Shown: positions 35,583-63,496, numbered from the stretch's first letter. The stretch is DNA of 64,000 bases from Escherichia coli (GCF_003991155.1 NZ_CP031293.1), one strand, 5' to 3'. The notes: generated from the letters alone by a model not told the origin. Numbers and translations: made by a program.

Positions 35583-35676
35583 GGTGGTCATTCTGGTGGT
35601 CTTGACAATCTCGATTTTTTGTTTTAGCTTACCAATCAGCCAGTTAATGGCTACGGCGATCCCAGTCAGAGGAGCC
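35583..35676 (+). repeat. Island-end repeat copy 1, ending in the tRNA-Asn 3'-terminal 15-mer
   Basis: ~94 bp near-identical to 48837..48930 and to the reverse complement of 63231..63325; ends CCAGTCAGAGGAGCC, matching the tRNA-Asn acceptor/T-arm 3' end. Confidence 0.8.
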
Positions 35677-35682
35677 CAATTT

Positions 35683-35714
35683 CTGAAAAACCCGCTTTTA
35701 TAGCGGGCTTTTCG
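35683..35714 (-). terminator. Terminator downstream of cbl
   Basis: GCCCGCT-ATAAAAG-AGCGGGT hairpin followed by T-run on the minus strand. Confidence 0.5.
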
Positions 35715-36665
35715 CTATATCTGATAATCAATTTCCTCTTCACTGTTTTCCATCACCTGGCGCTTGATATCCTCAACTGACAGTCCTGCATTACAAAGTT
35801 CCAGAAAGCGCCAGACATAGTTACGTTGAAGTTGCCCTCGCTTCAGTCCCAACCAGACAGTATTAGCATCGAAAAGATGCCTCGTATCCAGACGGATTAA
35901 ATTCTTTTCCTCTTGTTCACCACTGGATTGTTCGGCAACTAATCCGATCCCCAGCCCAAGAGCAACATAGGTTTTAATGACATCAGAATCCTGCGCACTT
36001 AATACAATATCTGCCAGCAAACCTTTGCGGGCAAATGCGTCATCAATACGTGAGCGCCCCGTAATCCCCTGTCGGTAAGTAATTAACGGCCACTTCGCTA
36101 TTGATTCCAGCGTCAACGGTGTAATTTGCGTCAAGGGATGATCGAGTGGAACAAGCAAACTATGGTGCCAACGAAACCACGGGAAGGCGACGAGCTGCGG
36201 GTCATTACTCAAACGCTCGCTGGCGATACCAATATCAGCTTCGCCATTTTGCAACAACGTCGCAATTTCCTGTGGTGTACCCTGGATTAGCTCCAGCCGA
36301 ACCTCCGGGAAAAGTTCGCGAAAAGCTTTAATGACCTCAGGCAAGCTATAACGTGCCTGAGTATGCGTCGTTGCAATAGTGAGAACGCCAGACGTATCGT
36401 TGGTAAACAGGTCTGCAAGCCGACGAACATTACTGGCTTCATTCAGAATACGTTCTGCAATGACCAGTAATGCTTTGCCCGGTTCAGTCATGCCCAGCAG
36501 TCGCTTACCTCGTCGAACAAATATTTCGATGCCAAGTTCATCCTCCAGTTCCCGAATATGACGGCTAACGCCTGACTGTGAGGTAAAAAGCATATTCGCA
36601 ACCTCTGTCAGGTTGTAATCCTGACGTGCAGCCTCGCGGATTATCTTTAGTTGTTGGAAATTCAC
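35715..36665 (-). CDS. cbl: LysR-family regulator Cbl (CysB-like)
   Basis: 316 aa; sequence recognised as E. coli Cbl (MNFQQLKIIREAARQDYNLTEVANMLFTSQSGVSRHIRELE...). Confidence 0.9.
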   Translation of the reverse strand: MNFQQLKIIREAARQDYNLTEVANMLFTSQSGVSRHIRELEDELGIEIFVRRGKRLLGMTEPGKALLVIAERILNEASNVRRLADLFTNDTSGVLTIATTHTQARYSLPEVIKAFRELFPEVRLELIQGTPQEIATLLQNGEADIGIASERLSNDPQLVAFPWFRWHHSLLVPLDHPLTQITPLTLESIAKWPLITYRQGITGRSRIDDAFARKGLLADIVLSAQDSDVIKTYVALGLGIGLVAEQSSGEQEEKNLIRLDTRHLFDANTVWLGLKRGQLQRNYVWRFLELCNAGLSVEDIKRQVMENSEEEIDYQI

Positions 36666-36766
36666 GGTAAACTCCGGGCAGTTCAGATATCCCGTTATTG
36701 TTAAAGTCTAATGCCCGGCATAACAAATAATAAAAACCCGCATCTTATTCCATCCCGATATAACGC

Positions 36767-37684
36767 TTAGCTCACCAATTGCCACTGCCTTTTTTCCATC
36801 ACTGGAGAATTCATCACTGACATTAACAACTCTTTCACTGCTTGCGCCTGTGGTGATAAGTTCGCTCTGGCGGGTAAATTTAATGACAAAGAGAGACTCA
36901 TGGAAGGAGTGGTAATGCGTGACATCCAACCATTTACTGCGCCACATAACGAACGCGCGGCCGATTCGGGTAATACTGCAACGCCCATGCCGCTGGCAAT
37001 CGCTGCGGTAAGCGTGGCAATAGACTCAATTTCACCAATGACTTTTGCCGTGAGTCGCCGTAGGGAAAAAGCCTCATCAACACGAAGTCTAATAGCACTG
37101 TAATCACTTGGGAGAAAAAGGTTCATTTGCGCAATAGCATTAACATCAACGCTTTGCCCCGGGCAATCTTGAGTTCCTACCAGAAAAAGATCTTCTTTCA
37201 GTAAAGCCTGACTGGATACACCAGCCACAGGGGAATGCTCATAAATCACCGCCATATCGAGTTGGTGATTTATCAGTTTTTCGTTAAGTACTGCACCGCT
37301 ATTTTCATGAAGATAAATAACGACCTCCGGGAATTCAGCGCGAACCGCCTGTAATAAGGGCATGGTGATGGATGACGCAGCGGTTCCTGGCGCAAAGCCA
37401 ATCGAGACTTGCCCCGATAATGCCTGACCAACGTTATGCACCGCCAGTTGGGCCTGCTCACACTGACGTAAAATGGCCCGCGCATGGGTATAGAGAATTT
37501 TTCCGGCGTCAGTTGGCGTAACACCCCGTTTTGTGCGAATCAAAAGTTGTTGATTTAACTCACCTTCCAGTGTGGCAACCTGCTGACTGAGCGCTGGTTG
37601 TGCGATATGCAATACTTCAGCAGCCTGGGTCAGGCTACCAATATCTACAATTTTTACGAAGTATTTCAGGCGTCTGAAGTTCAT
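36767..37684 (-). CDS. nac: LysR-family nitrogen assimilation control protein Nac
   Basis: Start MNFRRLKYFVKIVDIGSLTQAAEVLHIAQPALSQQ at 37684 (305 aa); recognised as Nac. Confidence 0.9.
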   Translation of the reverse strand: MNFRRLKYFVKIVDIGSLTQAAEVLHIAQPALSQQVATLEGELNQQLLIRTKRGVTPTDAGKILYTHARAILRQCEQAQLAVHNVGQALSGQVSIGFAPGTAASSITMPLLQAVRAEFPEVVIYLHENSGAVLNEKLINHQLDMAVIYEHSPVAGVSSQALLKEDLFLVGTQDCPGQSVDVNAIAQMNLFLPSDYSAIRLRVDEAFSLRRLTAKVIGEIESIATLTAAIASGMGVAVLPESAARSLCGAVNGWMSRITTPSMSLSLSLNLPARANLSPQAQAVKELLMSVMNSPVMEKRQWQLVS

Positions 37685-37738
37685 GTTGCCTCCGGTTTTT
37701 AAGAATCGGCCCAAGTGCCGCCATTACTTACAACCAGA

Positions 37739-37754
37739 TTGCAAGATGCTTGCC
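37739..37754 (-). promoter_or_regulatory. sigma54 (-24/-12) promoter for nac
   Basis: Minus-strand TGGCAAGCATCTTGCA matches TGGCAC-N5-TTGCA with correct GG-to-GC spacing, ~55 nt upstream of the nac start. Confidence 0.6.
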
Positions 37755-37870
37755 AGTTTTATTTTGGCGTTGATGTACAAGCTAACCAACTGTCAAATAA
37801 GAGATTATGATAGTTTTGTCACTCGATCTTTTTATTAGAACTCGCGTTCTCTGCCCCAAGACATAAAGGT

Positions 37871-37887
37871 ATGCACCACGATGGTTC
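37871..37887. promoter_or_regulatory. Putative NtrC enhancer half-palindrome upstream of nac
   Basis: TGCACCACGATGGTTCA resembles the TGCACC-N5-GGTGCA NtrC site consensus. Confidence 0.3.
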
Positions 37888-38008
37888 ATTACCAAAAAGA
37901 TTGAAAGCTCACCATTTTGTCGAAATTGGCAGCAAACAAACAAAAAAATGCATTTCACCCTTTGACATCACCATGCACTGCCATTAATATGCGCCCCGTT
38001 CACACGAT

Positions 38009-38084
38009 TCCTCTGTAGTTCAGTCGGTAGAACGGCGGACTGTTAATCCGTATGTCACTGGTTCGAGTCCAGTCAGAGGAGCCA
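38009..38084 (+). tRNA. asnV: tRNA-Asn (anticodon GTT)
   Basis: 76 nt TCCTCTGTAGTTCAGTCGGTAGAACGGCGGACTGTTAATCCGTATGTCACTGGTTCGAGTCCAGTCAGAGGAGCCA; cloverleaf consistent, anticodon GTT at 38042..38044; gene symbol inferred from position next to nac. Confidence 0.9.
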
Positions 38085-38250
38085 AATTTTAGTCTTGAGA
38101 CATCTCTATAAGTCTCAGGATAGTTAAAAAACAAGAACTTATCTTTACCCGGTTGTCTCGCAAGAGGCTGCTGGGTTTCTTGACATCCATAGTTTTTAGG
38201 GGCCTAATCAGGGGCCTCACGGTTCGGTGAGCAAACGGAGCCCCCACGCT

Positions 38251-39513
38251 ATGGCATTAACAGACACCGCTATTCGCAAGACTAAACCCTCTGACAAACC
38301 CTTCAAAATGACGGACAGTTCTGGACTGTACCTGTTGATCAAACCTAACGGCTCAAAACTCTGGTATATGAAGTACCGCATCGACGGCAAAGAGAAGAAA
38401 CTGGCCTTTGGCCCCTACCCGGAGATCTCCCTGTTGCAGGCTCGCCGCCTGCGCGAAACAGCACGCAATAACATTCATGCAGGCGTCGATCCGGCTGCGG
38501 TGAAGCAAACCGAGAAACAGAAGAGGAAAAACGGGCAGACGTTCAGCCAGATCGCCATCAACTGGCATAGCGAGCATAAACGCTGGTCTGAGCATTACGC
38601 GAAAACGGTTATGCGCAGGCTGGAAATGTACGTTTTCCCGGATATCGGGGATCGCCTTATCGAGGAGATCGAAACGGAGGATTTGTTATTCACGTTGCGC
38701 AAGGTAGAGAGTAAAGGCTTTCTGGAAATCACCGCGCGGCTGAAAAACTACGTCACCGATATCATGCACTACGCGATGAAAAAGAAACTGCTCAAAGCGA
38801 ACCCGGCGCTGTATCTGGACGGTGAGTTTGCCGCGCCAGAAACCAGTCACTACCCGGCCCTGTCGCTGGACAAATTGCCTGAGCTTTTAACCCGGACGGA
38901 TAGCTACTGCGGCAGGCTGCTGACAAAATACGCGCTTAAGCTGTCGCTGATTTTTTTTGTGCGCTCCAGCGAACTACGCTTTGCGCGCTGGAGTGAGATC
39001 GACTGGCAGCAGAAGTTATGGATAATCCCGGAAGAGCGCGAACAGATCGAAAACGTGCGCTTCTCTTACCGGGGGTCGAAAATGAAAATCCAGCACATTG
39101 TGCCGCTGTCGGATCAGGCGATTGCGATACTGAAACAGATCGAGGCCCTCTCCGGGCATCTGGCCTTTATTTTTCCCGGCGAATACGACCAGGACAAGTG
39201 CATGAGCGACAACACCGTCAACAAGGCGCTGCGCGTGATGGGTTACGACACCAAAAAGGATATCTGCGGGCATGGCTTCCGGGCAATGGCCTGTAGTGCG
39301 CTGAGCGAATCGGGATTATGGAGCAAAGAAGCCATTGAAAAGCAGATGAGCCACCAGGAAAGAAACAGCGTCCGTGCTGCCTATATTCACAAGGCTGAAT
39401 ATCTGGAGGAACGGATCGAGATGATGCAGTGGTGGTCAGATTATCTTGATGCAAACAGTGACGGGTATGTCTCGGCTTACCAGTATGCCCGCCGCCTAAA
39501 ACAGGCGTCGTAA
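38251..39513 (+). CDS. int: P4-like tyrosine integrase
   Basis: ORF 38227..39513; probable start MALTDTAIRKTKP at 38251; phage-integrase family features; lies directly 3' of the tRNA. Confidence 0.85.
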   Translation: MALTDTAIRKTKPSDKPFKMTDSSGLYLLIKPNGSKLWYMKYRIDGKEKKLAFGPYPEISLLQARRLRETARNNIHAGVDPAAVKQTEKQKRKNGQTFSQIAINWHSEHKRWSEHYAKTVMRRLEMYVFPDIGDRLIEEIETEDLLFTLRKVESKGFLEITARLKNYVTDIMHYAMKKKLLKANPALYLDGEFAAPETSHYPALSLDKLPELLTRTDSYCGRLLTKYALKLSLIFFVRSSELRFARWSEIDWQQKLWIIPEEREQIENVRFSYRGSKMKIQHIVPLSDQAIAILKQIEALSGHLAFIFPGEYDQDKCMSDNTVNKALRVMGYDTKKDICGHGFRAMACSALSESGLWSKEAIEKQMSHQERNSVRAAYIHKAEYLEERIEMMQWWSDYLDANSDGYVSAYQYARRLKQAS

Positions 39514-39636
39514 GTTAACAAAGCATCAGAGGGGGAAAAGGTATATTCCCCCTTTGTGCGTTTCAAATGTCGATGCTGACTGTAGCTTTTAAACTAAATT
39601 ACTGGATAAAAAGTAGCTTTTAAGCTACTATCTTTT

Positions 39637-39954
39637 ATGAAAACGATAAAGACCTACATAACTGCCGACGGGCGAGATCTGTATGCAGAGTTTTTTAAAG
39701 GGTTACGCGACCCCATCGCGAAGGCAAAGATCGCTTCCCGGATCAACCGGATGGCTTCGGACAATTTTGGCGACCATAAGCCCTGCCGGGAAGGTGTCTG
39801 GGAACTCAGGATAGATCAAGGGGCTGGGTATCGGGTTTATTACAGCCTGGTGGATGGAGAAGTCGTCCTGTTGATTCTGGCTGGCGACAAGCGTACGCAG
39901 GATGCAGATATAGATGAGGCTATTCGCTGCCTCAAAGACTATTTGAAGAGGTGA
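39637..39954 (+). CDS. RelE/ParE-superfamily toxin, HigB-like
   Basis: 105 aa; 3 nt before the antitoxin-like gene; toxin-first order typical of HigBA. Confidence 0.6.
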   Translation: MKTIKTYITADGRDLYAEFFKGLRDPIAKAKIASRINRMASDNFGDHKPCREGVWELRIDQGAGYRVYYSLVDGEVVLLILAGDKRTQDADIDEAIRCLKDYLKR

Positions 39955-39957
39955 TGT

Positions 39958-40266
39958 ATGGCGAAAGAACGTTTATATGATGATGTCATGGTGGAAGCGC
40001 TCCGGGAAGATCCTGCTTTTGCTCAGGCCTATCTGCATCAGGCATTTCTGGATATGGATGAAGATGGCGGTCAGGAAGCTTTTTTACTCGCGTTACGCCA
40101 TGTTGTTGAAGCGCGGGGAGGAATGGCGACGGTTGCCCAGAAAGCCGGTGTATCGCGTGAATCACTGTACCGCACGCTCTCCCCGACCGGCAACCCGACA
40201 CTGAAAACACTCCGCAGCGTCGTCCACGCCGCAGGTTTTCAGTTCTCTGCGCTGGCAAGTGCCTGA
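39958..40266 (+). CDS. HigA-like antitoxin (HTH)
   Basis: 102 aa; sequence resembles addiction-module antidote proteins (GVSRESLYRTLSPTGNPTLKTL helix-turn-helix region). Confidence 0.6.
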   Translation: MAKERLYDDVMVEALREDPAFAQAYLHQAFLDMDEDGGQEAFLLALRHVVEARGGMATVAQKAGVSRESLYRTLSPTGNPTLKTLRSVVHAAGFQFSALASA

Positions 40267-40388
40267 GTAGTTTTACATTTTGCAGCGATAATATAAATTG
40301 TAAATCATAATCCCTCCGTTGCTCTGTTCTGAGCAACGGATTACTTTGCATATTATCTGCTTTGCTAATCCATCAATTTTTAATTACC

Positions 40389-40682
40389 TTACATGGAAGC
40401 AACATACTCCATTAAATTATCTAATAAAAAATCAACCTTACTTATACCTTCATTTACATTATCGGCATAGATAAGTTCTACGAGCTTCATCCAACTTAAA
40501 TTGGAACGTACATTGTATTGTAAAAGGAGCCACTCTCTAAATCCCTCTAACATTTTACCGTCAAAGGAAAAATCCATCCCTAGTATAAAAGCCACAGTGT
40601 TTTCATAGTTATTTTCAAGTAGATACATATCGATATGCTTCTTAAAAAAAACAATTTTTTTTAGGAGGATATTTTTATTCAT
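40389..40682 (-). CDS. Putative immunity protein for orphan rhs toxin
   Basis: 97 aa, start 3 nt after the toxin stop, AT-rich. Confidence 0.5.
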   Translation of the reverse strand: MNKNILLKKIVFFKKHIDMYLLENNYENTVAFILGMDFSFDGKMLEGFREWLLLQYNVRSNLSWMKLVELIYADNVNEGISKVDFLLDNLMEYVASM

Positions 40683-40684
40683 AA

Positions 40685-41400
40685 TTAAAATCCAAAATTG
40701 ATTGCATCAGGATATTGCCATAACTCTTTATATTCTTGTAATGGTAAACCGTCTGAGCCAGTAAAGGCATCATAAACCCGACCATCTTTTACTACAACGT
40801 CGTGATATGCCCAACCGGGATTCGTGCCTCTGTATTTACCTAATGAAGGAGCTCCGAAATCAGGTCTAATTCTTGCAATATCACCACCGATTTTCTTTTG
40901 TACCCACAATGCAAAATCTTCACAACCATTCCAGTTCTCAGAATTTTTAATATCCGCAGCCTTCCATACACAATCAGCGTTAAGGCCTAATGGATCAATC
41001 CAATTTAACGGATCTTTGACGTAACTGTATGGATTAATACCTCCCAACACCCCGGTTGGATCTGCCGAAATATACTGCGCAGTATCAGGATCATAGTACC
41101 GGAACCGGTTATAGTACAGTCCTGATTCGGCATCTTCATACTGCCCCGGAAAACGCAGGCGGCAGTCAGGTGCATCATCCCTGTTCCTGCCTTCTTCCCG
41201 GCCCCAGAGCTGTTGTTTTCCCCGCCAGACAATGGTGCCGCCCTCGGTCAGCAGTTCCTGGACACGGCCGACCGTATCCGTCACCGCGTAATGCAACAAG
41301 CCTTTCTCATAACGCGCCAGCGGTGTAAAACTTCCCGGTTCGTATATCCAGCGGATGGCGTTTTCATCATCTGGCTTGCCGTCCTGGCTGACCGGAATTT
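40685..41400 (-). CDS. Orphan rhs C-terminal cassette with Cys/His/Asp-containing toxin tip
   Basis: ORF 40685..41299, rhs-core similarity extends to ~41400; DPLGL motif then a unique ~95 aa C-terminus. Confidence 0.7.
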
Positions 41401-41442
41401 CTTGGTTAGATGACCGTCAGTTAAATGGATATTATCATTCCA

Positions 41443-41784
41443 TTAAAAATCGGAATGATCCATATATTCTATATGCTCATCAGAAAGTCCATCTGGATAT
41501 AACTCTCTTGGATAATCACTATCTAAAATTGCTAGGAAGTTATTTATAGTATTTTCCAATGCCTCATCTACTGTTTTTCCCCAGCCAATAGCACCTTCGG
41601 GACAATCATCAAATTTCCGTTTAATCATTACATTTGTAATCCCCATGTAACTCCCATCCTGAGACTCTCGTATTTTTATTTTTACTTTTGCGCTAGGGAT
41701 AACACCAAACATCCAAATTACAAACTCGGCTTCAACTTTCTCTACTTTAGATACACTGCGTATTTTCATTTGATGCCAGCCCAT
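41443..41784 (-). CDS. Putative immunity protein for Rhs2 toxin
   Basis: ATG start MGWHQMKIRSV at 41784 with AGAGGA RBS, 11 nt after the Rhs2 stop. Confidence 0.5.
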   Translation of the reverse strand: MGWHQMKIRSVSKVEKVEAEFVIWMFGVIPSAKVKIKIRESQDGSYMGITNVMIKRKFDDCPEGAIGWGKTVDEALENTINNFLAILDSDYPRELYPDGLSDEHIEYMDHSDF

Positions 41785-41794
41785 ATCTTTTCCT

Positions 41795-44700
41795 CTATAA
41801 ACGACCAAAAGAGACAATTTCCCCTGTATCTACCGCAACATCAATATATCTTCCGTTCTTTCTATATCTCCACACATTTTCAGTATAACCAGAAACTTTG
41901 GTTGGTTTTATTCTTCTCAAGTTCTCAGAAAAAACCTTAGCTTTATTTAGATATTGCTCTACCGTTTCTGCACCAACTTCACGACCATGTTTTCTGAAGT
42001 GCTCCAGTAATGACTCTGCCGGAGTATCCCAACTTCCTTTACTCCATAGTTTTTTACAATTTACTTCTTGCAGGAATGCAAATAATGCCGATAAACCTAA
42101 AGGGTCAATATAACTAAATGGGTTCTGTACATATGAATATGGATTTAATCCCCCAAGTAACCCAATGGGATCTGCCGAAATATACTGCGCCGTATCAGGA
42201 TCATAGTACCTGAACCGGTTATAGTACAGTCCTGATTCCGTATCTTCGTACTGCCCCGGAAAACGCAGGCGGCAGTCAGGCGCATCATCCTTGTTTCTGC
42301 CTTCTTCCCGGCCCCAAAGTTGCTGTTTTCCCCGCCAGACAATCGTGCCGTCTTCGGTCAGCAACTCCTGGACACGACCGACCGTATCCGTCACCGCGTA
42401 ATGCAGCAAGCCTTTCTCATAACGTGCCAGCGGTGTAAAACTTCCCGGTTCATATATCCAGCGAATGGCATTTTCATATTCTGGTTTGCCATCAGTACCA
42501 ACAGGAATTTCTTCGGTTAACTGATCGCCATTCCAGTGGAAATCCATTCCGGACTTATCACGGTTGGTACACCGTTTGCTGATGCGCCTGCCAAACGGGT
42601 CGTATTTATACTCCCAGCGTTCCCCCTCCGGCGTTTCAAGCCCGGTAAGCTGACTTCTGGCATCCCAGCGATAGCGCCATTCGAGCGGACGATAGCCGCC
42701 TTTATCGACCAGTTTCTCCACCAGGCGACCATTAGCATCGTACGTCCAGGTAATATTGTGCTCATTCACCACCCGGACAAATTTTCCCTCTTCCGGCTTT
42801 CCTGTGTCCGGGTTGATGCGGTGTGTCTGATGCCGCCAGCCTTTGTGCTCTCTGGAAACAACTCTTCCATGCCGCAACTGCTGGTGTGTCTCGCTTTCCA
42901 GCACCTCATTTACCCATGTCTGGCGGCGGGCAATATTCAGGTTTTTGTCATAAGTGAACAGTTCCTCACACAGCGGAAACTCCCGGGAATCGCCCGTCCA
43001 GGTGGCATGGCTTACCTGGTCGTTAACCGTCATATTGTTGAAGGCTGATCCCCGCAGCGAGTCTGATATTACCGTCAGGTTGTACGCCTTGTCATACAGC
43101 CACTGGCGCTCCAGGCTTTTGTTCCGTTCGTACGGCCCGGCCTGGTGGTCCCCGGCATTCTGCTTCGCTGGCATCCCTGTGCGCGTGTATGCCAGCGTCT
43201 GGTAAAACCCGGCCTCGCTCCGCCTGGACGTTTCCAGGCCGCGCAGGTCGTGCTCAAATGTCAGCGGGGCATGGTCCGCTATCTGCCAGGATGCCAGATG
43301 CCCCATCAGGTTTCGGGTAAAGCGTTCTGTGATACCTGCTGTGGTGCGCTGTGTGACCGTATCCAGGTCAGGGTCGTAACGGTATTCTGTGCGCCTGCCG
43401 TTCAGCGTTTCGGCAACAATCTGGTTTGCATCGTTATATTCAAATGTAACGGTGGCATCGTCATTCTTCGCTTCCACCAGACGACGCTGCGTGTCGTAAC
43501 GAAATGTGGTGACACTCAGAGTTCGGTCACTGTTGCCCTGTGTGACTTCCTCGTCCGTCACCTGGTCATTCACGTTGTAGCGGCGGTTAAGGTGAGTGCC
43601 GTCCGGGAAGCTGGTGCGAATACAACGCCCGACGGCATCGTAGGTGTAGTTCAGCGTGCGTCCGGTGAAGTCTGTTTCTGCTACAAGCTGCCCGGCTTTA
43701 TCATATTTAAGACGGTAGCGCTCGCCTTCGGCGTTGGTAATTTCGGTCAGGCGGGTCAGTTTATCGTAGCGACACGCCAGCCGCTCGCCGTCAGGACGCA
43801 CCAGAGCCGTGAGCAGATCGAATGCACCGTATTCGTAACGGGTGGTTTTGCCCTCGCCATCGGTAAAGCTTTCCGGTAGCTTTTCGCTGTTCTGGCGCAT
43901 CAGTTCCCGCACGCCGTCCGGGCGCTGGATTTCTTCCACGCAGCCCTGTGGCCCGGCGTGGATTTTGCTGTGACGAAACTGCGTGGTGAAGCCAAGTGGG
44001 TCTTTCACACTTAACAGTCGGCCCAGCATATCCTGTTCGGTCTGCGTGATGCCGCCGTCTGGCGCAACAGTCTCGCGCACCTGATGCAGGGCGTCATGAC
44101 TCCAGCACCAGGTGGCCCCGCCCGGCAGAATCCGTGCAAGCAAATCACCCTGTTCACTGTAGCTGAACTGCTGTTTCCGGCCCTGAGGGTCGATCAGGCT
44201 GATTATGCTGCCCCGATCATCATAGACCCATTGCCACGCCTGATTATCAGTTGTCGACAGCCGGGTTAACTGACCGGTATCATTATACTCGTAGAACAGG
44301 CCATAGCCGCCCGGCAGGGCAACCTGGATAACCTCACCTTCCCGGTTATAGCGGTACGCCGTGGTACGCCCCAGCGCATCGGTGCGTGACTGAAGCCGGG
44401 CATTATTCCAGACGGTAATTTCTTCCCGCCCCAGCGGATCGATACAGCGGGTGACCAGGCCGTCCTCGTTATACCAGTAACGGGTTTCGCCCCCTTCTGC
44501 ATCCAGGTAGGTGGTGCATTTTTCATCATCGTTATAGATAAAGCGGTCATCGAAGTAGCCTTCCGTTGACAGTGTGCTGACAGCGCGCCCCTGCGGATCA
44601 TAGCGGATATCCACACAGGTTTTGTCCGTATCCCGCCAGCGGGTCATAAAGCCTTCTGATGTGTACTCATGCCATAAATGCGAGAACTGGAAGGTATCGC

Positions 44701-45985: not shown

Positions 45986-45992
45986 CGTATTA

Positions 45993-47244
<1,252 letters not shown>

Positions 47245-47493
47245 CCACTACACATAGCAAGGGGAAAAGGTGGATGGGAGCCAACTAAGTTACAAAATTT
47301 TGATCCTGAATTTGGCAGAAAACTACAAGCAATAAATAACGCGTTAAGGAATGGACGGATAGAATTTGCTCATGCACAGGTTTTTTTACGCAATGATGGC
47401 TCTGTTAATGCTGCAGTAGGCATTGGTAGCGGAATACAGTGGAATACCTGGTAATAATAGTATGTGTATATAACGAATAAAGGAGTCCATTTT

Positions 47494-48426: not shown

Positions 48427-48453
48427 TTTGGTACTGGATACAAAGGATAGATA

Positions 48454-48717: not shown

Positions 48718-48836
48718 CTAATACCAAAATAACTCTATGATTAAAAAGGCTGATATATATGCTGGAAGTAGACAGACTACCGGAAACAGTACGACGGTGA
48801 CAGGGTGAACCAAAGGGTTAGGCGCATTTTAAAAAG

Positions 48837-49243: not shown

Positions 49244-57223
<7,980 letters not shown>

Positions 57224-57244
57224 TTTTCCGCTATAATTTCTTAA

Positions 57245-57273
57245 AGAGTGCTCCATTCGGGGCACTCTTTTTT
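57245..57273 (+). terminator. Rho-independent terminator after yeeJ
   Basis: AGAGTGCTCC-ATTC-GGGGCACTCT followed by TTTTT. Confidence 0.7.
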
Positions 57274-57483
57274 ACATTCCCTCTACAGAACTTGCCCTTC
57301 TCTCACAGAAAATGAATAAATAAAAATGCGATACCGCCAGATTCGCGTTCGGTGTGACTATGGTTGTATCCGGTGAGTACAGCTTTGATCCAAAGGCTGG
57401 CTTCTGTGATGATTAACCAGCCTCAGGGTATTGATGACACCACCGTTCATAACAGATCGGCATTACTTTGCATACGTACTGCT

Positions 57484-58536
57484 TCATATTCTCGCCAAAA
57501 CACTTTTTAATGCCTTTGCGAATTCATCCAGACTTATATTGTCAATTTTTTGCCCAACGACGACTGACTCCGAAACATCGGCCATTGCTGGCCATCGCGT
57601 TTTGTAATCAGCATAAATTGCAACAACGGGGGTATTATAGGCACTTGCCATATGTAATATTGAGGTGTCAGGAGTTATTGCGATATAAGCATCTTTTATG
57701 ATTGCTGCTGAACGTTTAATCGAGGGTGATAAGGATAAACGGTAGACATTATTATAACAATCCACTAACACCCTGGCTTTTTCTTCCCCTTTTGGTCCAT
57801 GAACGATCACTATTGGTATATCTGTTTCACTTTGAATTTTTTCTATTATATTTTCTGCAATCGATAATAAAAATGTACGTTCCTGCGAGCTACCTTCTAA
57901 ATTAAGCGCAATGTAAGATCCTAACGATCGCATTTCCTCGCGCACCTCATCGAGTACATCCTTACTTAGTGGCAATTCATATATTGGCCTGACTGCTGGA
58001 AAACCCGCCTCACGCATCATAAATGCCCATGTCATGGGCACAGGAGCCCGGAGATTCTGATCCATCCGGGACGCGCTCTTACACAAAGGGGAATAGCACT
58101 TCATGGTTAAACCAACAACCTGAAAATTCGTTTTTGCTTTCAACTGACTGATAAATATCATCGTTTTCAGGTTCTTTTTACGCATCGCCTCTATACAAAG
58201 ATCCGGCGTACCGTATTGCTGTGTTATGTTCTTCGCTAAATCTTTTATTTCTTTTAATGTTGCGTGATCCTGCATAGTCATTGTGACTAATGTTAATTTA
58301 GTCTGTTCAAGTTTGAGCGCGTTAAAGACTTCTAAATTAATTGTCGACGTAACAATTAAAAGATGCTTAATTTTATGCAATTCAAGCGCCCTAATAACTG
58401 GAAAGATGGCCATAGCATCGCCAATCTGATCGGGAATATGGATAACAACAAACTCTGTTTTTTCAATATTGAAATTAAAAGCTTTATAATCGTAGTAACT
58501 AAATGCAATACGTCTCAACAATGATGCTAAAAACAT
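57484..58536 (-). CDS. yeeL: Glycosyltransferase family 9 (heptosyltransferase-like) protein, YeeL
   Basis: ORF 57484..58599, probable start MFLASLLRRIAF at 58536; uninterrupted. Confidence 0.7.
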   Translation of the reverse strand: MFLASLLRRIAFSYYDYKAFNFNIEKTEFVVIHIPDQIGDAMAIFPVIRALELHKIKHLLIVTSTINLEVFNALKLEQTKLTLVTMTMQDHATLKEIKDLAKNITQQYGTPDLCIEAMRKKNLKTMIFISQLKAKTNFQVVGLTMKCYSPLCKSASRMDQNLRAPVPMTWAFMMREAGFPAVRPIYELPLSKDVLDEVREEMRSLGSYIALNLEGSSQERTFLLSIAENIIEKIQSETDIPIVIVHGPKGEEKARVLVDCYNNVYRLSLSPSIKRSAAIIKDAYIAITPDTSILHMASAYNTPVVAIYADYKTRWPAMADVSESVVVGQKIDNISLDEFAKALKSVLARI

Positions 58537-58850
58537 AACTAACCCCGCTTCCCTACTGGTTATAATGCAATGCAGTTTATCAGACTCATCAGGGCGCAAT
58601 TTTGTGCATATGCGGACTTTTATGTTTCATATCTCGAATCTGTGGATCCTCTGCTTAATCCTTAAACAACACCAGCAACTCCTGCGCTTTCATCTACCAT
58701 CGAATTTTTCATGTTGCCGTTAATCAGCCATAAAATCATTTGCAGATGCGCTCTGTCGAGGTAGTCTCATAAGGTTCGTTTATAGATCGACGGCAATGTG
58801 AGTTACCTTTTCCATACTAATTATAAAAAGACAGTACAAACAGGATCATT

Positions 58851-60167
58851 ATGGACTCCACGCTCATCTCCACTCGTCCCGATGAAGGGACGCTTTCGTT
58901 AAGTCGCGCCCGACGAGCTGCGTTAGGCAGTTTCGCTGGTGCCGTCGTCGACTGGTATGATTTTTTACTCTATGGCATTACCGCCGCACTGGTGTTTAAT
59001 CGCGAGTTTTTCCCGCAAGTAAGCCCGGCTATGGGAACGCTCGCCGCATTTGCCACCTTTGGTGTCGGATTCCTGTTCCGTCCGCTCGGCGGTGTCATTT
59101 TCGGTCACTTTGGCGACCGACTGGGACGTAAGCGCATGTTAATGCTGACCGTCTGGATGATGGGTATCGCGACAGCCTTGATTGGTATTCTTCCTTCATT
59201 CTCGACTATTGGGTGGTGGGCCCCCATTTTACTGGTGACGCTGCGTGCCATTCAGGGATTTGCCGTCGGCGGCGAATGGGGAGGCGCGGCGTTACTTTCC
59301 GTTGAAAGTGCACCGAAAAATAAAAAAGCCTTTTACAGTAGCGGTGTACAAGTTGGCTACGGAGTAGGTTTACTGCTTTCGACAGGACTGGTTTCATTGA
59401 TCAGTATGATGACGACTGACGAACAGTTTTTAAGCTGGGGCTGGCGGATTCCTTTCCTGTTTAGCATCGTACTGGTACTGGGGGCATTGTGGGTGCGTAA
59501 TGGCATGGAGGAGTCCGCGGAATTTGAACAACAGCAACATAATCAAGCGGCCGCGAAAAAACGCATCCCGGTTATCGAAGCACTATTACGACATCCCGGT
59601 GCTTTCCTGAAGATTATTGCGCTACGACTGTGCGAGTTGCTGACGATGTACATCGTTACCGCCTTTGCACTTAATTATTCAACCCAGAATATGGGGTTAC
59701 CGCGCGAACTTTTCCTTAATATTGGTTTGCTGGTCGGTGGATTAAGCTGCCTGACAATTCCCTGTTTTGCCTGGCTTGCCGATCGTTTTGGTCGCCGCAG
59801 GGTTTATATCACAGGCGCGTTGATCGGAACGTTGAGCGCATTTCCTTTCTTTATGGCGCTTGAAGCACAATCTATTTTCTGGATAGTTTTCTTCTCCATA
59901 ATGCTGGCAAACATTGCGCATGACATGGTGGTGTGCGTGCAACAACCGATGTTTACCGAAATGTTTGGTGCCAGTTATCGCTATAGTGGCGCTGGAGTCG
60001 GATATCAGGTTGCCAGTGTGGTTGGCGGTGGATTTACACCTTTTATTGCCGCTGCACTCATCACTTACTTTGCCGGGAACTGGCATAGCGTCGCTATTTA
60101 TTTGCTGGCTGGATGCCTGATTTCCGCAATGACCGCTTTGTTGATGAAAGACAATCAACGCGCTTAA
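58851..60167 (+). CDS. shiA: Shikimate transporter (MFS)
   Basis: 438 aa, 12-TM major facilitator; recognised as ShiA. Confidence 0.9.
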   Translation: MDSTLISTRPDEGTLSLSRARRAALGSFAGAVVDWYDFLLYGITAALVFNREFFPQVSPAMGTLAAFATFGVGFLFRPLGGVIFGHFGDRLGRKRMLMLTVWMMGIATALIGILPSFSTIGWWAPILLVTLRAIQGFAVGGEWGGAALLSVESAPKNKKAFYSSGVQVGYGVGLLLSTGLVSLISMMTTDEQFLSWGWRIPFLFSIVLVLGALWVRNGMEESAEFEQQQHNQAAAKKRIPVIEALLRHPGAFLKIIALRLCELLTMYIVTAFALNYSTQNMGLPRELFLNIGLLVGGLSCLTIPCFAWLADRFGRRRVYITGALIGTLSAFPFFMALEAQSIFWIVFFSIMLANIAHDMVVCVQQPMFTEMFGASYRYSGAGVGYQVASVVGGGFTPFIAAALITYFAGNWHSVAIYLLAGCLISAMTALLMKDNQRA

Positions 60168-60268
60168 TAGCCTGGCGAAGATCATCCGATCTTCGCCTTA
60201 CACTTTTGTTTCACATTCCTGTGACATACTATCGGAAGTGCGGTAATTGTATGGAACAGGAGACACAC

Positions 60269-61723
60269 ATGAATAATAAGGGCTCCGGTCTGACCCCAGC
60301 TCAGGCACTGGATAAACTCGACGCGCTGTATGAGCAATCTGTAGTCGCATTACGCAACGCCATTGGCAAATATATTAGAAGTGGCGAATTACCTGATGAA
60401 AACGCCCGCAAACAAGGTCTTTTTGTCTATCCATCACTGACCGTAACCTGGGACGGTAGCACAACCAATCCCCCCAAAACGCGCGCATTTGGTCGTTTTA
60501 CTCACGCAGGCAGCTACACCACCACGATTACTCGCCCTACTCTCTTTCGTTCGTATCTTAATGAACAACTTACGTTGCTGTATCAGGATTATGGTGCGCA
60601 TATCTCGGTGCAACCCTCGCAGCATGAAATCCCTTATCCTTATGTCATCGATGGCTCTGAATTGACACTTGATCGCTCAATGAGCGCTGGGTTAACTCGC
60701 TACTTCCCGACAACAGAACTGGCGCAAATTGGCGATGAAACTGCAGACGGCATTTATCATCCAACTGAATTCTCCCCGCTATCGCATTTTGATGCGCGCC
60801 GCGTCGATTTTTCCCTCGCGCGGTTGCGCCATTATACCGGTACGCCAGTTGAACATTTTCAGCCGTTCGTCTTGTTTACCAACTACACACGTTATGTGGA
60901 TGAATTCGTTCGTTGGGGATGCAGCCAGATCCTCGATCCTGATAGTCCCTACATTGCCCTTTCTTGTGCTGGCGGGAACTGGATCACCGCCGAAACCGAA
61001 GCGCCAGAAGAAGCCATTTCCGACCTTGCATGGAAAAAACACCAGATGCCAGCATGGCATTTAATTACCGCCGATGGTCAGGGTATTACTCTGGTGAATA
61101 TTGGCGTGGGACCGTCAAATGCTAAAACCATCTGCGATCATCTGGCGGTGCTACGCCCGGATGTCTGGTTGATGATTGGTCACTGTGGTGGCTTACGTGA
61201 AAGCCAGGCCATTGGAGATTATGTACTTGCACACGCTTATTTACGCGATGACCACGTTCTTGATGCGGTACTGCCGCCCGATATTCCTATTCCGAGCATT
61301 GCTGAAGTGCAACGTGCGCTTTATGACGCTACCAAGTTAGTCAGCGGCAGGCCCGGAGAGGAAGTTAAACAGAGGCTACGTACTGGCACTGTGGTAACCA
61401 CAGATGACAGGAACTGGGAATTACGTTACTCAGCTTCTGCACTTCGTTTTAACTTAAGCCGGGCCGTAGCAATTGATATGGAAAGTGCAACCATTGCCGC
61501 GCAAGGATATCGTTTCCGCGTGCCATACGGGACACTACTGTGTGTTTCAGATAAACCGTTGCATGGTGAGATTAAACTTCCCGGTCAGGCTAACCGTTTT
61601 TATGAAGGCGCTATTTCCGAACACCTGCAAATTGGCATTCGGGCGATCGATTTGCTGCGCGCAGAAGGCGACCGACTGCATTCACGTAAATTACGAACCT
61701 TTAATGAACCGCCGTTCCGGTAA
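60269..61723 (+). CDS. amn: AMP nucleosidase
   Basis: Start MNNKGSGLTPAQALDKLDALYEQ at 60269 with AGGAG RBS (484 aa); recognised as Amn. Confidence 0.9.
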   Translation: MNNKGSGLTPAQALDKLDALYEQSVVALRNAIGKYIRSGELPDENARKQGLFVYPSLTVTWDGSTTNPPKTRAFGRFTHAGSYTTTITRPTLFRSYLNEQLTLLYQDYGAHISVQPSQHEIPYPYVIDGSELTLDRSMSAGLTRYFPTTELAQIGDETADGIYHPTEFSPLSHFDARRVDFSLARLRHYTGTPVEHFQPFVLFTNYTRYVDEFVRWGCSQILDPDSPYIALSCAGGNWITAETEAPEEAISDLAWKKHQMPAWHLITADGQGITLVNIGVGPSNAKTICDHLAVLRPDVWLMIGHCGGLRESQAIGDYVLAHAYLRDDHVLDAVLPPDIPIPSIAEVQRALYDATKLVSGRPGEEVKQRLRTGTVVTTDDRNWELRYSASALRFNLSRAVAIDMESATIAAQGYRFRVPYGTLLCVSDKPLHGEIKLPGQANRFYEGAISEHLQIGIRAIDLLRAEGDRLHSRKLRTFNEPPFR

Positions 61724-61782
61724 TAAGTTCTGTTCCTTTTTATCAGGAATAGATGTGAAGGATTTAGTAAGTCATCCAGCAA

Positions 61783-61808
61783 ATAGCCTGCAATAAAGCA
61801 GGCTGTTT
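61783..61808 (+). terminator. Rho-independent terminator after amn
   Basis: AGCCTGC-AATAAA-GCAGGCT hairpin followed by T-rich tail. Confidence 0.6.
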
Positions 61809-62064
61809 GCTTCCTGGGGCGGATACGAGTTTTATTATAGCCTTAATGATTTCCATATATTAAAAGCAAGTATGCTTTCAAAACACAATTATAAAAAAAT
61901 CCGCCAACGACATTAGTTTTTATGAGATTAAATATAATATTATGGCTTTAGAATATTTTTATTTCTAATAGACGAGATTTTTCCTGTTATGATATAATAT
62001 GCCGAATTAACACATGTTAACGATTTACCAGTAATGTAAATAAATTTTCGAGGAGATCATTCCA

Positions 62065-62781
62065 GTGGGACGTAAATGGGCCAATATTGTTGCTAAAAAA
62101 ACGGCTAAAGACGGTGCAACGTCTAAAATTTATGCAAAATTCGGTGTAGAAATCTATGCTGCTGCTAAACAAGGTGAACCCGATCCAGAATTAAACACAT
62201 CTTTAAAATTCGTTATTGAACGAGCAAAGCAGGCACAAGTTCCAAAGCATGTTATTGATAAAGCAATTGATAAAGCCAAAGGCGGCGGAGATGAAACGTT
62301 CGTGCAGGGCCGTTATGAAGGCTTTGGTCCTAATGGCTCAATGATTATCGCCGAGACCTTGACTTCAAATGTTAACCGTACGATTGCTAACGTTCGCACA
62401 ATTTTCAATAAAAAAGGCGGCAATATCGGAGCGGCAGGTTCTGTCAGCTATATGTTTGACAATACGGGTGTGATTGTATTTAAAGGAACAGACCCTGACC
62501 ATATTTTTGAAATTTTACTTGAAGCTGAAGTTGATGTTCGTGATGTGACTGAAGAAGAAGGTAATATTGTTATTTATACTGAACCTACTGACCTTCATAA
62601 AGGAATCGCGGCTCTAAAAGCAGCTGGAATCACTGAGTTCTCAACAACAGAATTAGAAATGATTGCTCAATCTGAAGTTGAGCTTTCCCCAGAAGATTTA
62701 GAAATCTTTGAAGGGCTTGTTGATGCCCTTGAAGATGACGACGATGTTCAAAAAGTTTATCATAACGTCGCAAATCTCTAA
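62065..62781 (+). CDS. yeeN: YebC/PmpR-family transcriptional regulator YeeN
   Basis: 238 aa; GTG start with GAGGAG RBS; recognised as YeeN. Confidence 0.85.
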
Positions 62782-62793
62782 TTATATTTTAAA

Positions 62794-62823
62794 GAAATCT
62801 GTCTTTATGGCAGATTTCTTTAA
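62794..62823 (+). terminator. Rho-independent terminator after yeeN
   Basis: AGAAATCTG-loop-CAGATTTCT followed by TTTAAT. Confidence 0.6.
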
Positions 62824-62839
62824 TCTCATATAATTCTTA

Positions 62840-63130
62840 TAAAGAATATAATATCCAGCTCGTCATATTGATTATAAAACCCACGCTCCCAGAGAAATAA
62901 TATTTATTAAAATTCCAGGCCTTCTTTTTCTGATTACAGAAGGCAAAGTGGCAATTACGTATAGTTTCCCGATAAAGACGTGACAGCAACATCCCGCATA
63001 AGGCATTTTTCTCTTTATCTTTGTACGGTGCTTCATGGAACAGAGTTTTTGACCTTGCGAATCGTGATGTCTGTTGGGGGGCAATTTGCTCACTGAAGCG
63101 TGAGACTCGATTAAGCACACGAAACACAGA
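62840..63130 (-). pseudogene. Decayed integrase 5' remnant next to the tRNA-flank sequence
   Basis: Reverse complement of 62990..63228 resembles the asnV-to-int leader and the first int codons (ttcagtgagcaaattgcccccca / acagacatcacgattcgcaaggtc vs ttcggtgagcaaacggagccccca / acagacaccgctattcgcaagact); frame broken. Confidence 0.4.
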
Positions 63131-63230
63131 AATCAAAAAACCCGGTCACTTTTTTACAAGGTAACCGGGTAAAAATGATTTTATTTTTTAACTGTCTTGA
63201 GACTCATAGAGATGTCTCAAAACTAAAATT

Positions 63231-63325
63231 TGGCTCCTCTGACTGGGATCGCCGTAGCCTTTAACAGGCTGATTGATAAGCTAAAACAAAAAATCGAGTT
63301 TGTCAAGACCACCAGACTGACCACC
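63231..63325 (-). repeat. Island-end repeat copy 3 with truncated tRNA-Asn 3' end (pseudo-tRNA / attR)
   Basis: Reverse complement matches copies 1 and 2; 63231..63246 is the tRNA 3' 16-mer; it is followed on the minus strand by the same flank that follows asnV (aattttagt[c/t]ttgagacatctc). Confidence 0.8.
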
Positions 63326-63496
63326 ATTTTTATTAGCGTATATTTTCGCTATGGGCATACTGTCTATTCATTTAACACATGCACGTCTTATTAGAGCGAA
63401 AAGTGTACATTTCAAAAATGCTTTAATAGGATTTCTAGCTATGATGCTAAAGTATCACTACTTTTATGGATATAAACTAGACAGGAATGATGTGTT

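Follow-up and report, generated by a model that had tools for sequence, protein, structure and literature searches.

We analysed a window of 64,000 nucleotides of Escherichia coli DNA (GCF_003991155.1, NZ_CP031293.1), which was 100% identical to E. coli strain E50, and used the E50 annotation as the basis for the island parts that lie outside the window. The window contains three copies of a 79-bp sequence (the arm), each running into the final 16 nt of tRNA-Asn (the core), and one intact tRNA recovered by ARAGORN. Across about 110 kb of the matching genome we counted exactly four intact tRNA-Asn genes, none with the arm, and three arm-plus-core junctions, and therefore three islands (I1, I2 and I3) and one free tRNA. 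At the end opposite the repeat, each island has an intact tRNA-Asn and, after it, a 421-codon tyrosine recombinase gene.

In the original prediction, copy 1 closed the T6SS/Rhs region, copy 2 closed the island that starts at the intact tRNA, and copy 3, facing the opposite way, closed an island past the window end. All three assignments hold. The T6SS/Rhs region is I1; in E50 its own tRNA-Asn, on the mtfA side, and its integrase are located about 10 kb ahead of window position 1. The 10.8-kb I2 has its own integrase, and its gene order is int, a RelE/ParE toxin with its antitoxin, Rhs fragments, IS3, a hypothetical gene and PAAR. The 18-kb I3 is inverted, and its tRNA-Asn, on the minus strand and adjoining yeeO, and its integrase pseudogene lie 18 kb past the window end in E50. 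The left ends of I1 and I2 are 98.2% identical over 1.65 kb. The chromosomal block between I2 and I3 follows the K-12 order, whereas the cbl-nac block between I1 and I2 no longer occupies its K-12 position. The islands of the window showed no module for conjugation and no oriT module.

Features of the three junctions and of the islands and chromosomal blocks around them (window coordinates).
Feature	Position	Strand	Description
Island I1 (T6SS/Rhs), window part	1-35661	+	whole island 45,644 bp
Copy 1, whole unit	35583-35677	+	79-bp arm + 16-nt core
Copy 1 arm	35583-35661	+	79-bp conserved right arm (P' arm) of I1
Copy 1 tandem GGTGGTC repeats	35583 and 35595	+	12 bp start to start
Copy 1 TTGACA	35602	+	
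Copy 1 TAGCTT	35625	+	
Copy 1 palindrome	35639-35651	+	GCCAGTTAATGGC
Copy 1 core	35662-35677	+	tRNA-Asn last 16 nt, 1 substitution (GAGCCC)
cbl-nac chromosomal block, between I1 and I2	35678-38008	.	asnU 3' flank to asnV 5' flank
Intact tRNA-Asn(GTT)	38009-38084	+	attL of I2; asnV-type 5' flank (nac side)
Island I2	38085-48914	+	10,830 bp, wholly within the window
I2 left arm, core to int	38085-38250	+	2 hairpin-like elements; tandem GGGGCCT at 38199 and 38211
I2 tyrosine integrase, 420 aa	38251-39513	+	Arm-DNA-bind_3, Phage_int_M, Phage_integrase (Pfam)
Copy 2, whole unit	48836-48930	+	79-bp arm + 16-nt core
Copy 2 arm	48836-48914	+	79-bp right arm of I2
Copy 2 palindrome variant	48892-48904	+	GCCTGTTAAAGGC
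Copy 2 core	48915-48930	+	tRNA-Asn 3' 16-mer, 1 substitution (GAGCAA)
Chromosomal block yeeJ-yeeL-shiA-amn-yeeN	48931-63084	.	K-12 order
asnW 3' flank	63085-63230	-	present in K-12 too
Copy 3, whole unit	63231-63325	-	79-bp arm + 16-nt core
Copy 3 core	63231-63246	-	tRNA-Asn 3' 16-mer, perfect
Copy 3 arm	63247-63325	-	79-bp right arm of I3
Island I3, first 675 bp	63326-64000	-	whole island 18,019 bp

The tRNA-Asn 3' 16-mer, CCAGTCAGAGGAGCCA, had four matches in the window at up to two mismatches, one of them inside the tRNA; the chance expectation was 0.04 matches, and none of 100 shuffles reached four. All three arms start with GGTGGTC-N5-GGTGGTCTTGACA, and the similarity between copies ends abruptly upstream of the first GGTGGTC. 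Pairwise, the arms differ at 5, 5 and 2 of the 79 positions, copies 2 and 3 being the closest pair. The attL/attR direct repeat is 20 bp long (one mismatch in I1, one in I2 and none in I3). The 79-bp arm has no homology to the 5' portion of the tRNA or the flank upstream of it. Thus, three tRNA-Asn-ended copies without the rest of the tRNA are present as predicted, at coordinates that had been given correctly to within one base. The Rfam search of the window recovered only the intact tRNA and isrC and no family for the copies, the fold energies of the copies against shuffled controls gave no RNA-structure signal (z = -0.80, 0.25 and -0.36), and ARAGORN called none of the three as a tRNA; a structured RNA gene or tRNA-like element was rejected on these results.

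The genome of K-12 has no islands here and carries intact asnU, asnT and asnW at the positions of copies 1, 2 and 3, which gives the empty sites that a comparison with an island-free genome had been expected to define. Directly after the core, copy 1 continues into the K-12 asnU 3' flank and terminator, copy 2 into the asnT 3' flank and then yeeJ, and copy 3 into the asnW 3' flank; in this comparison the island boundary coincides with the repeat at all three copies. The prediction that the copies are attR-type ends is borne out by the K-12 flank resuming right after the 16-mer and by the same arm ending other asn islands, including pks. We conclude that the three repeats are very probably the attR junctions of three islands in the asn-tRNA cluster (asnT, asnW, asnU and asnV).

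The integrases of I1 and I2 are 98.3% identical to each other and 52–53% identical to those of the HPI (CFT073) and of pks. The NCBIfam integrase model gave 253.6 bits, under its cut-off of 434 bits. The I3 integrase is a pseudogene with an internal stop and is only about 53% identical to I1/I2; the islands that had been described as related have integrases of two lineages. Arm and integrase similarity do not co-vary, given that copies 2 and 3 differ at only 2 of 79 positions while their integrases are about 53% identical; recombination may thus have swapped or homogenised the arms, and the independent integrations may number fewer than three. We found no PHROGs match to an excisionase among five small or unannotated ORFs screened in I1–I3. 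Since, in addition, two cores are substituted and one integrase is a pseudogene, it is doubtful that the islands are mobile today.

A junction of this kind would form if the island attP consisted of the left arm next to int, the core (the last 16–20 bp of tRNA-Asn) and the 79-bp right arm, and if a heterobivalent tyrosine integrase of the P4 type catalysed recombination between this core and the 3' end of a tRNA-Asn gene. The attL product would then be an intact tRNA followed by int, and the attR product would run from the 79-bp arm through the displaced 3' end of the former tRNA into the pre-existing chromosomal flank, so that the 79 bp would represent the conserved recombination arm of the element. 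The tandem GGTGGTC repeats and the GCCA-N5-TGGC palindrome are most likely, as predicted sites, bound by the arm-binding domain of the integrase and by accessory proteins. The left arm yielded no site of the GGTGGTC type, and GGTGGTC is for that reason only a putative integrase arm site.

We then considered the distribution of the junction. In E. coli it was detected in 312 genomes by megablast and in 814 out of 5426 genomes by blastn, the latter giving 957 places with at most five per genome and a single place on a plasmid. All 957 places span at least 80% of the 95-bp query and include the tRNA end. Across strains the same junction abuts all four asn flanks: the asnU flank in 101 genomes, the asnT flank in 184 and the asnW flank in 94, with asnV-flank junctions seen too. 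The cargo that it closes comprises T6SS/PAAR, Rhs, defence genes and the colibactin island. In a scan of about 100,000 genomes, one per species, with a motif taken from the arm alone and excluding the 16-mer, we obtained 95 matches, all hosts being Enterobacterales: 82 were followed by a perfect tRNA-Asn 16-mer (81 at +79 and one at +78), and another 6 carried the 16-mer there with 1–3 mismatches. The cross-species conservation of GGTGGTC-N5-GGTGGTCTTGACA is partly circular because this motif was the search pattern, whereas no such circularity affects its invariance in the E. coli set derived by BLAST.

The flanks of the islands indicate that the region has been reshuffled. The tRNA/attR pairs of I1 and I2 have 5' and 3' flanks from different asn loci; this mismatch implies a rearrangement after integration, in which the cbl-nac block moved from between asnU and asnV to asnT. 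A block made of I1, the asnU 3' flank, cbl-nac, the asnV 5' flank and a tRNA now lies at asnT. By the simplest route, recombination between asnU and asnV would have deleted a circle that was re-inserted at the tRNA/int repeat at asnT. Between yeeO and ldtA we found a hybrid unoccupied tRNA with the asnU 5' flank and the asnV 3' flank. Strains G3/10 and A33 have cognate asnU islands in K-12 gene order, and the asnU 5' flank is joined to a left arm of the I1/I2 type in 35 genomes.

An origin of the copies outside any island has little in its favour. That they belong to a dispersed intergenic element of the REP/MITE kind, resembling the tRNA-Asn end by chance, fits their small size, their lack of coding sequence and their three occurrences in 28 kb, but the probability is practically negligible: the low copy number per genome, the chromosomal position of all but one of the 957 places and their reach through the tRNA core argue against it, as does the 16-mer, which lay outside the search pattern and yet recurs at a fixed distance in the species scan. 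Moreover, the inspected places all lie within the asn-tRNA cluster, and the copies have neither an RNA-structure signal nor an Rfam family. The scatter over non-tRNA loci by which the original prediction was to be refuted was seen neither in E. coli nor in the species scan. REP/MITE membership was rejected, as many copies at unrelated intergenic sites were not found. It is likewise very improbable that the copies are tRNA-Asn pseudogenes, that is, former asnU, asnT and asnW genes whose 5' two-thirds were deleted without any mobile element. They do sit at the exact K-12 positions of these genes with the same 3' flanks, and two have mutated CCA-proximal bases; however, independent deletions plus identical insertions would be needed at three loci, where the same 79-bp replacement is unlike the tRNA or its upstream flanks. 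Other genera also conserve the 79 bp, at a constant spacing from the core, and four intact tRNA-Asn genes are still present, each moved to the distant end of an insert that carries an integrase.

Two other readings concern the history of the junctions. Copy 3 could mark a junction within a tandem array (right arm, core and left arm of a second, decayed island) instead of one between island and chromosome, a reading that has a substantial chance of being right, somewhat short of even. About 150 bp after the copy 3 core are 77–84% identical to the I1/I2 left arm, arm-core-left-arm junctions occur in other genera too, and tandem accretion is known for Klebsiella asn islands (PMC4891358). Against this, K-12 has the same flank next to an intact asnW and no island, no integrase coding remnant was detectable in the flank, and the likeness could also mean that the element captured its left arm from an asnW-like locus. 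The asnW 3' flank is probably what remains of the left end of an older island, and because K-12 has it without an island we treat it as chromosomal flank for present purposes. The other reading takes I1 and I2 as the two parts of a single ancestral island at asnT (T6SS with PAAR/Rhs accessory genes), split by cbl-nac and a second int copy through homologous recombination at island sequences (int, RelE, IS3 and Rhs), with three junctions but not three integrations and with copy 1 derived from a different, G3/10-like asnU island. This is a tentative proposal, and it is probably not what happened. It is favoured by the right end of I2 (hypothetical gene, PAAR, arm and yeeJ), which resembles that of the single asnT T6SS island of O145 RM9873, by the near-identical left ends of I1 and I2, and by copy 1, which is only 2 of 79 bp from the G3/10 asnU junction, the G3/10 integrase being of the other lineage. 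Several IS3 and Rhs repeats are on hand for recombination, and an IS3-IS3 deletion variant is known in strain AR Bank #0349. Conversely, it takes more steps than a single excision of the asnU-asnV interval with its re-insertion, the split alone leaves the clean hybrid tRNA between yeeO and ldtA unexplained, and no intermediate genome was identified.

As a refinement of the original prediction, the stretch downstream of copy 3 is not plain chromosome but probably an old left-arm-like relic, which is shared with K-12.

We think it unlikely, although conceivable, that the 79-bp arm also carries a conserved, outward-facing predicted sigma-70 promoter. The putative promoter has a perfect TTGACA, a 17-bp spacer that is constant although its sequence varies, and a -10 element TAnnnT in 80 out of 80 distinct arms; the putative -35 abuts the second of the tandem GGTGGTC repeats. 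If true, the promoter would point across the core to int in the excised circle or in tandem arrays, so that int expression would be integrase-controlled and confined to the circular form; from an integrated copy it would yield a short transcript spanning the palindrome, the orphan 3' fragment of the tRNA and the terminator of the old tRNA.

Finally, we compared the junctions with known asn-tRNA islands. Islands at asn-tDNA, among them the Yersinia high-pathogenicity island (HPI), ICEKp and the GIE492 group of Klebsiella, are bounded by 17–20-bp repeats containing the final 16 nt of the tDNA; any of several asn copies can serve as target, the loci are integration hot spots with tandem accretion, and excision was shown for GIE492 (PMC4891358). 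The phage collection contained no record with DNA similarity. P4 and P4-like integrases have the same domain architecture as the I2 integrase, including the N-terminal arm-DNA-binding domain, and P4 likewise has its attP adjoining int and integrates into the 3' end of a tRNA gene, although its tRNA target differs. The EARL (ROD21-like) islands also lie at Asn-tRNA genes of Enterobacteriaceae, and some occupy the att site belonging to another asn island (PMC6035254); they are defined by ROD21-type attL/int, RDF and H-NS-like genes and repeats of 24–37 bp, against 20 bp in the window. The HPI integrase (CFT073) is 70% identical to that of I3 and 52% to those of I1/I2. The HPI of E. coli has lost its right repeat (PMC8209727), and its arm is therefore not comparable; a Yersinia pestis locus of the species scan (L074) has arm and core and is a candidate for the HPI end.

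A close counterpart is the pks (colibactin) island, which also lies at asn tRNA genes between 16–17-bp direct repeats (17 bp in PMC8209727) and has tRNA-Asn plus integrase at its other end. In CFT073 its clbA-side end has GGTGGTC-N5-GGTGGTCTTGACA, TTTAGCTTA, the GCCA..TGGC palindrome, GGCGATC and the tRNA-Asn 16-mer at +79. This end is 78.6% identical to copy 3, and its arm differs from the window arms at 19–23 of 79 positions. The integrase of pks shares 71% identity with the I3 pseudogene but only 53% with I1/I2, and the cargo of pks is colibactin, in contrast to the T6SS/Rhs/PAAR and toxin-antitoxin genes of the window islands. The pks flanks are chimeric too (a yeeO-side tRNA with an ldtA-side attR), in agreement with the inversion of the asnW-asnU-asnV region published alongside pks (PMC8209727). 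The junction is of a well-known kind, and it is the gene order around the junctions that is reshuffled here.

The only tRNA that ARAGORN recovered in the window is a tRNA-Asn(GTT), and the last 16 nt of this gene (CCAGTCAGAGGAGCCA) recur three times; the chance expectation for such 16-mer matches is about 0.04. Each of these cores is preceded by 79 bp, the right arm, with the sequence GGTGGTCAkTCTGGTGGTCTTGACAAwCTCGATTTTTTGTTTTAGCTTAyCAATCAGCCwGTTAAwGGCTAmGGCGATC, and the three arms differ pairwise at 5, 5 and 2 positions. Likeness among the copies stops sharply upstream of the first GGTGGTC, and the 79 bp showed no relationship to the tRNA 5' part or the tRNA promoter region. The predicted repeats ending in the tRNA-Asn 3' terminus are real, and their exact units are listed in the table. 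We rejected a truncated tRNA pseudogene, and also a structured RNA, since folding of the three copies gave no structure signal and an Rfam search of the copies returned no family. A distant BLAST search of the junction against a phage collection gave no match.

Several complete E. coli chromosomes match the window at 100% identity, such as that of strain E50 (NZ_CP121199.1; record position minus 2,905,704 gives the window position). In K-12, which served as the island-free comparison genome, the order is mtfA-asnT-yeeJ-yeeL-shiA-amn-yeeN-asnW(-)-yeeO(-)-asnU-cbl(-)-nac(-)-asnV-ldtA. At each copy K-12 has an intact asn gene, and its sequence restarts directly after the 16-mer, which answers the proposed comparison with empty att sites. 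Together with the island layouts in E50, these flanks support the original prediction that the three copies are attR ends of tRNA-Asn islands. A core scan of about 110 kb of E50 found four intact, arm-free tRNA-Asn genes and three arm-plus-core junctions, and therefore three islands (I1, I2 and I3, closed by copies 1, 2 and 3) and one free tRNA.

Copy 1 closes the T6SS/Rhs region, as had been proposed, since I1 ends there (mtfA-tRNA-int-RelE'-IS3-T6SS cluster-Hcp/VgrG-PAAR/Rhs-ISAs1-copy 1). Copy 2 likewise closes the island that starts at the intact tRNA (tRNA-int-RelE/antitoxin-Rhs-IS3-hypothetical-PAAR-copy 2), and the inverted island expected beyond the window end is I3 (yeeO-side tRNA(-)-int with an internal stop-integrase-domain gene-HigA-HTH-ash-DUF2169-IS3-Rhs-large hypothetical gene-DUF6375-radical SAM-copy 3). 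Between attL and attR each island has a 20-bp direct repeat (CCAGTCAGAGGAGCCAAATT), perfect in I3 and with a single substitution in each of the other two. A PHROGs search for an excisionase recognised none among five small or unannotated island ORFs and two already annotated ones. Rfam also matched isrC, an sRNA that binds Hfq, over its full length at 46063-46185 (+; 145 bits), where the IS3-family element of I2 has its 5' end. A sister strain, AR Bank #0349 (L001), lacks the DNA between the IS3 elements of I2 and I3 (window 46067-64000 and beyond), including yeeJ, shiA, amn, yeeN and copies 2 and 3, which is consistent with a derived form that arose by IS3-IS3 deletion.

Coordinates and properties of the junctions, islands, right-arm blocks and integrases (window positions unless another record is named)
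Feature	Position	Strand	Description
Copy 1, unit	35583-35677	+	
Copy 1, 16-mer core	35662-35677	+	One mismatch; 3' side: K-12 asnU 3' flank (terminator, then cbl)
Copy 2, unit	48836-48930	+	
Copy 2, 16-mer core	48915-48930	+	One mismatch; 3' side: K-12 asnT 3' flank, then yeeJ
Copy 3, unit	63231-63325	-	
Copy 3, 16-mer core	63231-63246	-	Perfect; 3' side: K-12 asnW 3' flank, then yeeN
Intact tRNA-Asn(GTT)	38009-38084		5' side: K-12 asnV 5' flank, nac side
I1	1-35661, entirely I1		45,644 bp; E50 annotation, core scan
I2	38085-48914		10,830 bp; E50 annotation, core scan
I3	63247 onward		18,019 bp; inverted; E50 annotation, core scan
Hybrid free tRNA-Asn	E50 record 2988794-2988869; L004 19795-19870		
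Integrase genes compared	window 38251-39513; L005 5889-7151; L004 16547-17809		
I1 vs I2 integrase			98.3% protein identity
I1/I2 vs HPI, pks and I3 integrases			52-54% protein identity
I3 pseudogene vs CFT073 HPI and pks integrases			70-71% protein identity
I3 pseudogene vs G3/10 asnU-island integrase			96.9% protein identity
Right arm, first block	arm 0-24		Two GGTGGTC repeats, 12 bp start to start; TTGACA directly after the second
Right arm, second block	arm 25-40		Variable sequence, constant length
Right arm, third block	arm 41-49		TTTAGCTTA
Right arm, fourth block	arm 53-68		ATTAGCCAGTTACTGGC
Right arm, fifth block	arm 69-78		AAAGGCGATC
Core	arm 79-94		tRNA-Asn core
GCCA-N5-TGGC palindrome, copy 1	35639-35651		
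GCCA-N5-TGGC palindrome, copy 2	48892-48904		
GCCA-N5-TGGC palindrome, copy 3	63257-63269		

The I2 integrase contains Arm-DNA-bind_3, Phage_int_M and Phage_integrase domains, an architecture of the heterobivalent, P4 type; an NCBIfam search with it gave just one domain model, below cut-off. The left ends of I1 and I2 share 98.2% DNA identity over 1,654 bp. The two integrase lineages are only about 53% identical in protein sequence, yet their right arms differ at only 2-5 of 79 positions. In particular, copies 2 and 3 show 2 arm differences in 79 despite integrases of the two lineages, and copy 1 differs from the G3/10 junction also at 2 of 79. Right arms and integrases have not diverged together: either one arm is used by both lineages, or arms have been exchanged through recombination. 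Because the arms do not follow the integrase split, three junctions need not mean three independent integrations.

We divided the right arm into blocks from 80 distinct arms, numbered from the first base. The outer four pairs of the palindrome (GCCA/TGGC) were kept in 77-78 of the 80 and its centre varies; relative to copy 1, both bases of one pair have changed in copies 2 and 3, and the symmetry is kept (GCCA..TGGC to GCCT..AGGC). We infer that the tandem repeats and the palindrome are binding sites for the Int arm domain and accessory factors. No GGTGGTC-type sites were found in the left arm, the island DNA between core and int. A tandem GGGGCCT lies there just upstream of the int start codon (at 38199 and 38211; 38199-38217), with the 12-bp start-to-start spacing of the right-arm pair and a different sequence. 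The arm also contains TTGACA-N17-TAGCTT, which resembles an outward promoter; in all 80 arms the spacer measures 17 bp and the -10 has the form TAnnnT. A promoter/terminator consensus scan around copies 2 and 3 did not call it, because its -10 agrees with the consensus at just 3 of 6 bases, and the promoter idea therefore stays speculative.

The roughly 150 bp on the 3' side of the copy 3 core (63085-63230, -) are 77-84% identical to the I1/I2 left arm, and K-12 has the same left-arm-like asnW 3' flank (L003, about 17880-18027). Most probably an older island left this flank behind as a fixed relic of its left end, and copy 3 would then count, formally, as a junction of tandem accretion; alternatively, an element captured an asnW-like flank. 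By BLAST, left-arm homologues occur at about 10 loci in other genera, where arm-core-left-arm junctions are present; a regular-expression search for the left-arm block 3' of cores in other genera returned nothing. A 45-bp blastn match at the asnW flank was dropped as an int fragment, since tblastn of the I2 integrase against the flank found no coding remnant.

The E50 order runs mtfA-tRNA-[I1]-arm-(asnU 3' flank)-cbl-nac-(asnV 5' flank)-tRNA-[I2]-arm-(asnT 3' flank)-yeeJ...yeeN-(asnW 3' flank)-arm(-)-[I3](-)-tRNA(-)-yeeO-(asnU 5' flank)-tRNA-(asnV 3' flank)-ldtA. Compared with K-12, the sole displaced block is that from the asnU 3' flank to the asnV 5' flank, and asnW has both its own flanks. 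The cbl-nac block (35678-38008) is found at asnT with an island on either side, not between asnU and asnV, and a hybrid unoccupied tRNA-Asn (asnU 5' flank, asnV 3' flank) is found between yeeO and ldtA. The copy 1-cbl junction occurred at an identity of at least 99.5% in about 30 of 5,426 genomes.

The simplest explanation of this order is a two-step route. Recombination between asnU and asnV would leave the hybrid free tRNA and release a circle [I1-arm-cbl-nac-tRNA], which would then re-insert at the tRNA/int repeat of asnT; I1 would then have started out as an island at asnU, and I2 as the one at asnT. Other strains have cognate asnU islands with the K-12 order intact, and the asnU 5' flank is joined to an I1/I2-type left arm in 35 genomes. 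Alternatively, homologous recombination could have divided a single asnT island into I1 and I2, a less likely reading suggested by the likeness of the I2 right end to that of the O145 asnT T6SS island. Rearrangement of the asn cluster has a precedent: in B2 strains an inversion of the asnW-asnU-asnV region accompanies the pks island (PMC8209727), and CFT073 shows this too, its yeeO-side tRNA-int-pks island ending beside ldtA.

We searched 5,426 complete E. coli genomes for the 95-bp unit; megablast found it in 312 and blastn in 814, at 957 places, one of them on a plasmid. All 957 cover at least 80% of the query and therefore reach through the tRNA core. With at most five copies per genome and the tRNA-Asn end always attached, we rejected a dispersed repeat unrelated to tRNA-Asn, and the predicted link stands. 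Searches with the unit plus 95 bp of flank found the junction at asnU in 101 genomes, at asnT in 184 and at asnW in 94, and asnV-flank junctions are also present in other strains. In O145 the junction closes a T6SS/PAAR island, in Combat11I9 an Rhs island, in 2018-06-4CC and in DA33133 islands with defence genes, and in G3/10 a cognate yeeO-asnU-int-...-Rhs-arm-cbl island. It also closes the colibactin island of CFT073, whose clbA-side end is 78.6% identical to copy 3 with equal block structure. These comparisons point to a conserved island end that closes unrelated cargo. The E. coli asn loci act as defence-island hot spots. The asnV islands with this junction (A33, L108 12549-31200; DA33133, L105 1-6000; L008 1-5500) carry anti-phage-looking cargo, namely an ATP-dependent nuclease with UvrD-type helicase, a CHAT-domain protein and an ABC-three-component system.

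We also scanned one genome per GTDB species with the arm-only pattern GGTGGTC-N5-GGTGGTCTTGACA; the tRNA end lies outside this pattern, so the association of arm and tRNA-Asn is unbiased. A perfect tRNA-Asn 16-mer accompanied 82 of the 95 matches (81 at exactly +79, one at +78), and in 6 more it stood at +79 with 1-3 mismatches. Among the other 7, 2 were cut by contig ends and 3 were more degraded. One of the last two, in an Anaerolineales MAG, was due to chance. The second, in Morganella morganii (L056 178-280), has a tRNA-Phe 3' end (GAGTCCGGGCACCA) in place of tRNA-Asn at about the usual distance from the motif; the arm sites thus seem to be retained in a relative that targets another tRNA. 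In this species set, conservation at the pattern positions is circular, but these positions do not vary in the E. coli set obtained by BLAST either. Hosts across Enterobacterales included Citrobacter, Klebsiella, Serratia, Pectobacterium, Dickeya, Erwinia, Yersinia and Morganella. A Yersinia pestis locus (L074) was checked as the HPI right border, and this assignment was not established.

Our analysis gives exact borders for three islands of this E. coli lineage, including the 45.6-kb T6SS/Rhs island. A single 79-bp right arm, always equally far from the core, is common to asn islands of very different cargo, with integrases down to 52% identity, the colibactin island and many Enterobacterales genera among them, and offers a practical marker to find and delimit asn-tRNA islands, decayed ones too. 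Like the pks-associated inversion before them, the chimeric flanks, as a second case, show the four asn tRNA genes and their islands as a recombination scaffold, one that reorders core genes such as cbl-nac. A non-exhaustive literature search found no description of the fixed 79-bp arm or of the cbl-nac transposition.

Finally, by all sequence features compared, the three junctions are built in the standard way of asn-tDNA islands. Those of Klebsiella are flanked by repeats of 17-20 bp, which contain the final 16 nt of the tDNA; each of the four asn copies can serve as target, and the islands have been shown to excise (PMC4891358). For the pks island the repeats measure 17 bp (PMC8209727), and EARL/ROD21-like islands likewise target Asn-tRNA genes (PMC6035254). 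The biology is ordinary and the current understanding of how asn islands work stays unchanged: the kind of element is already known, and what is new are these particular islands and the I1/I2 integrase lineage.
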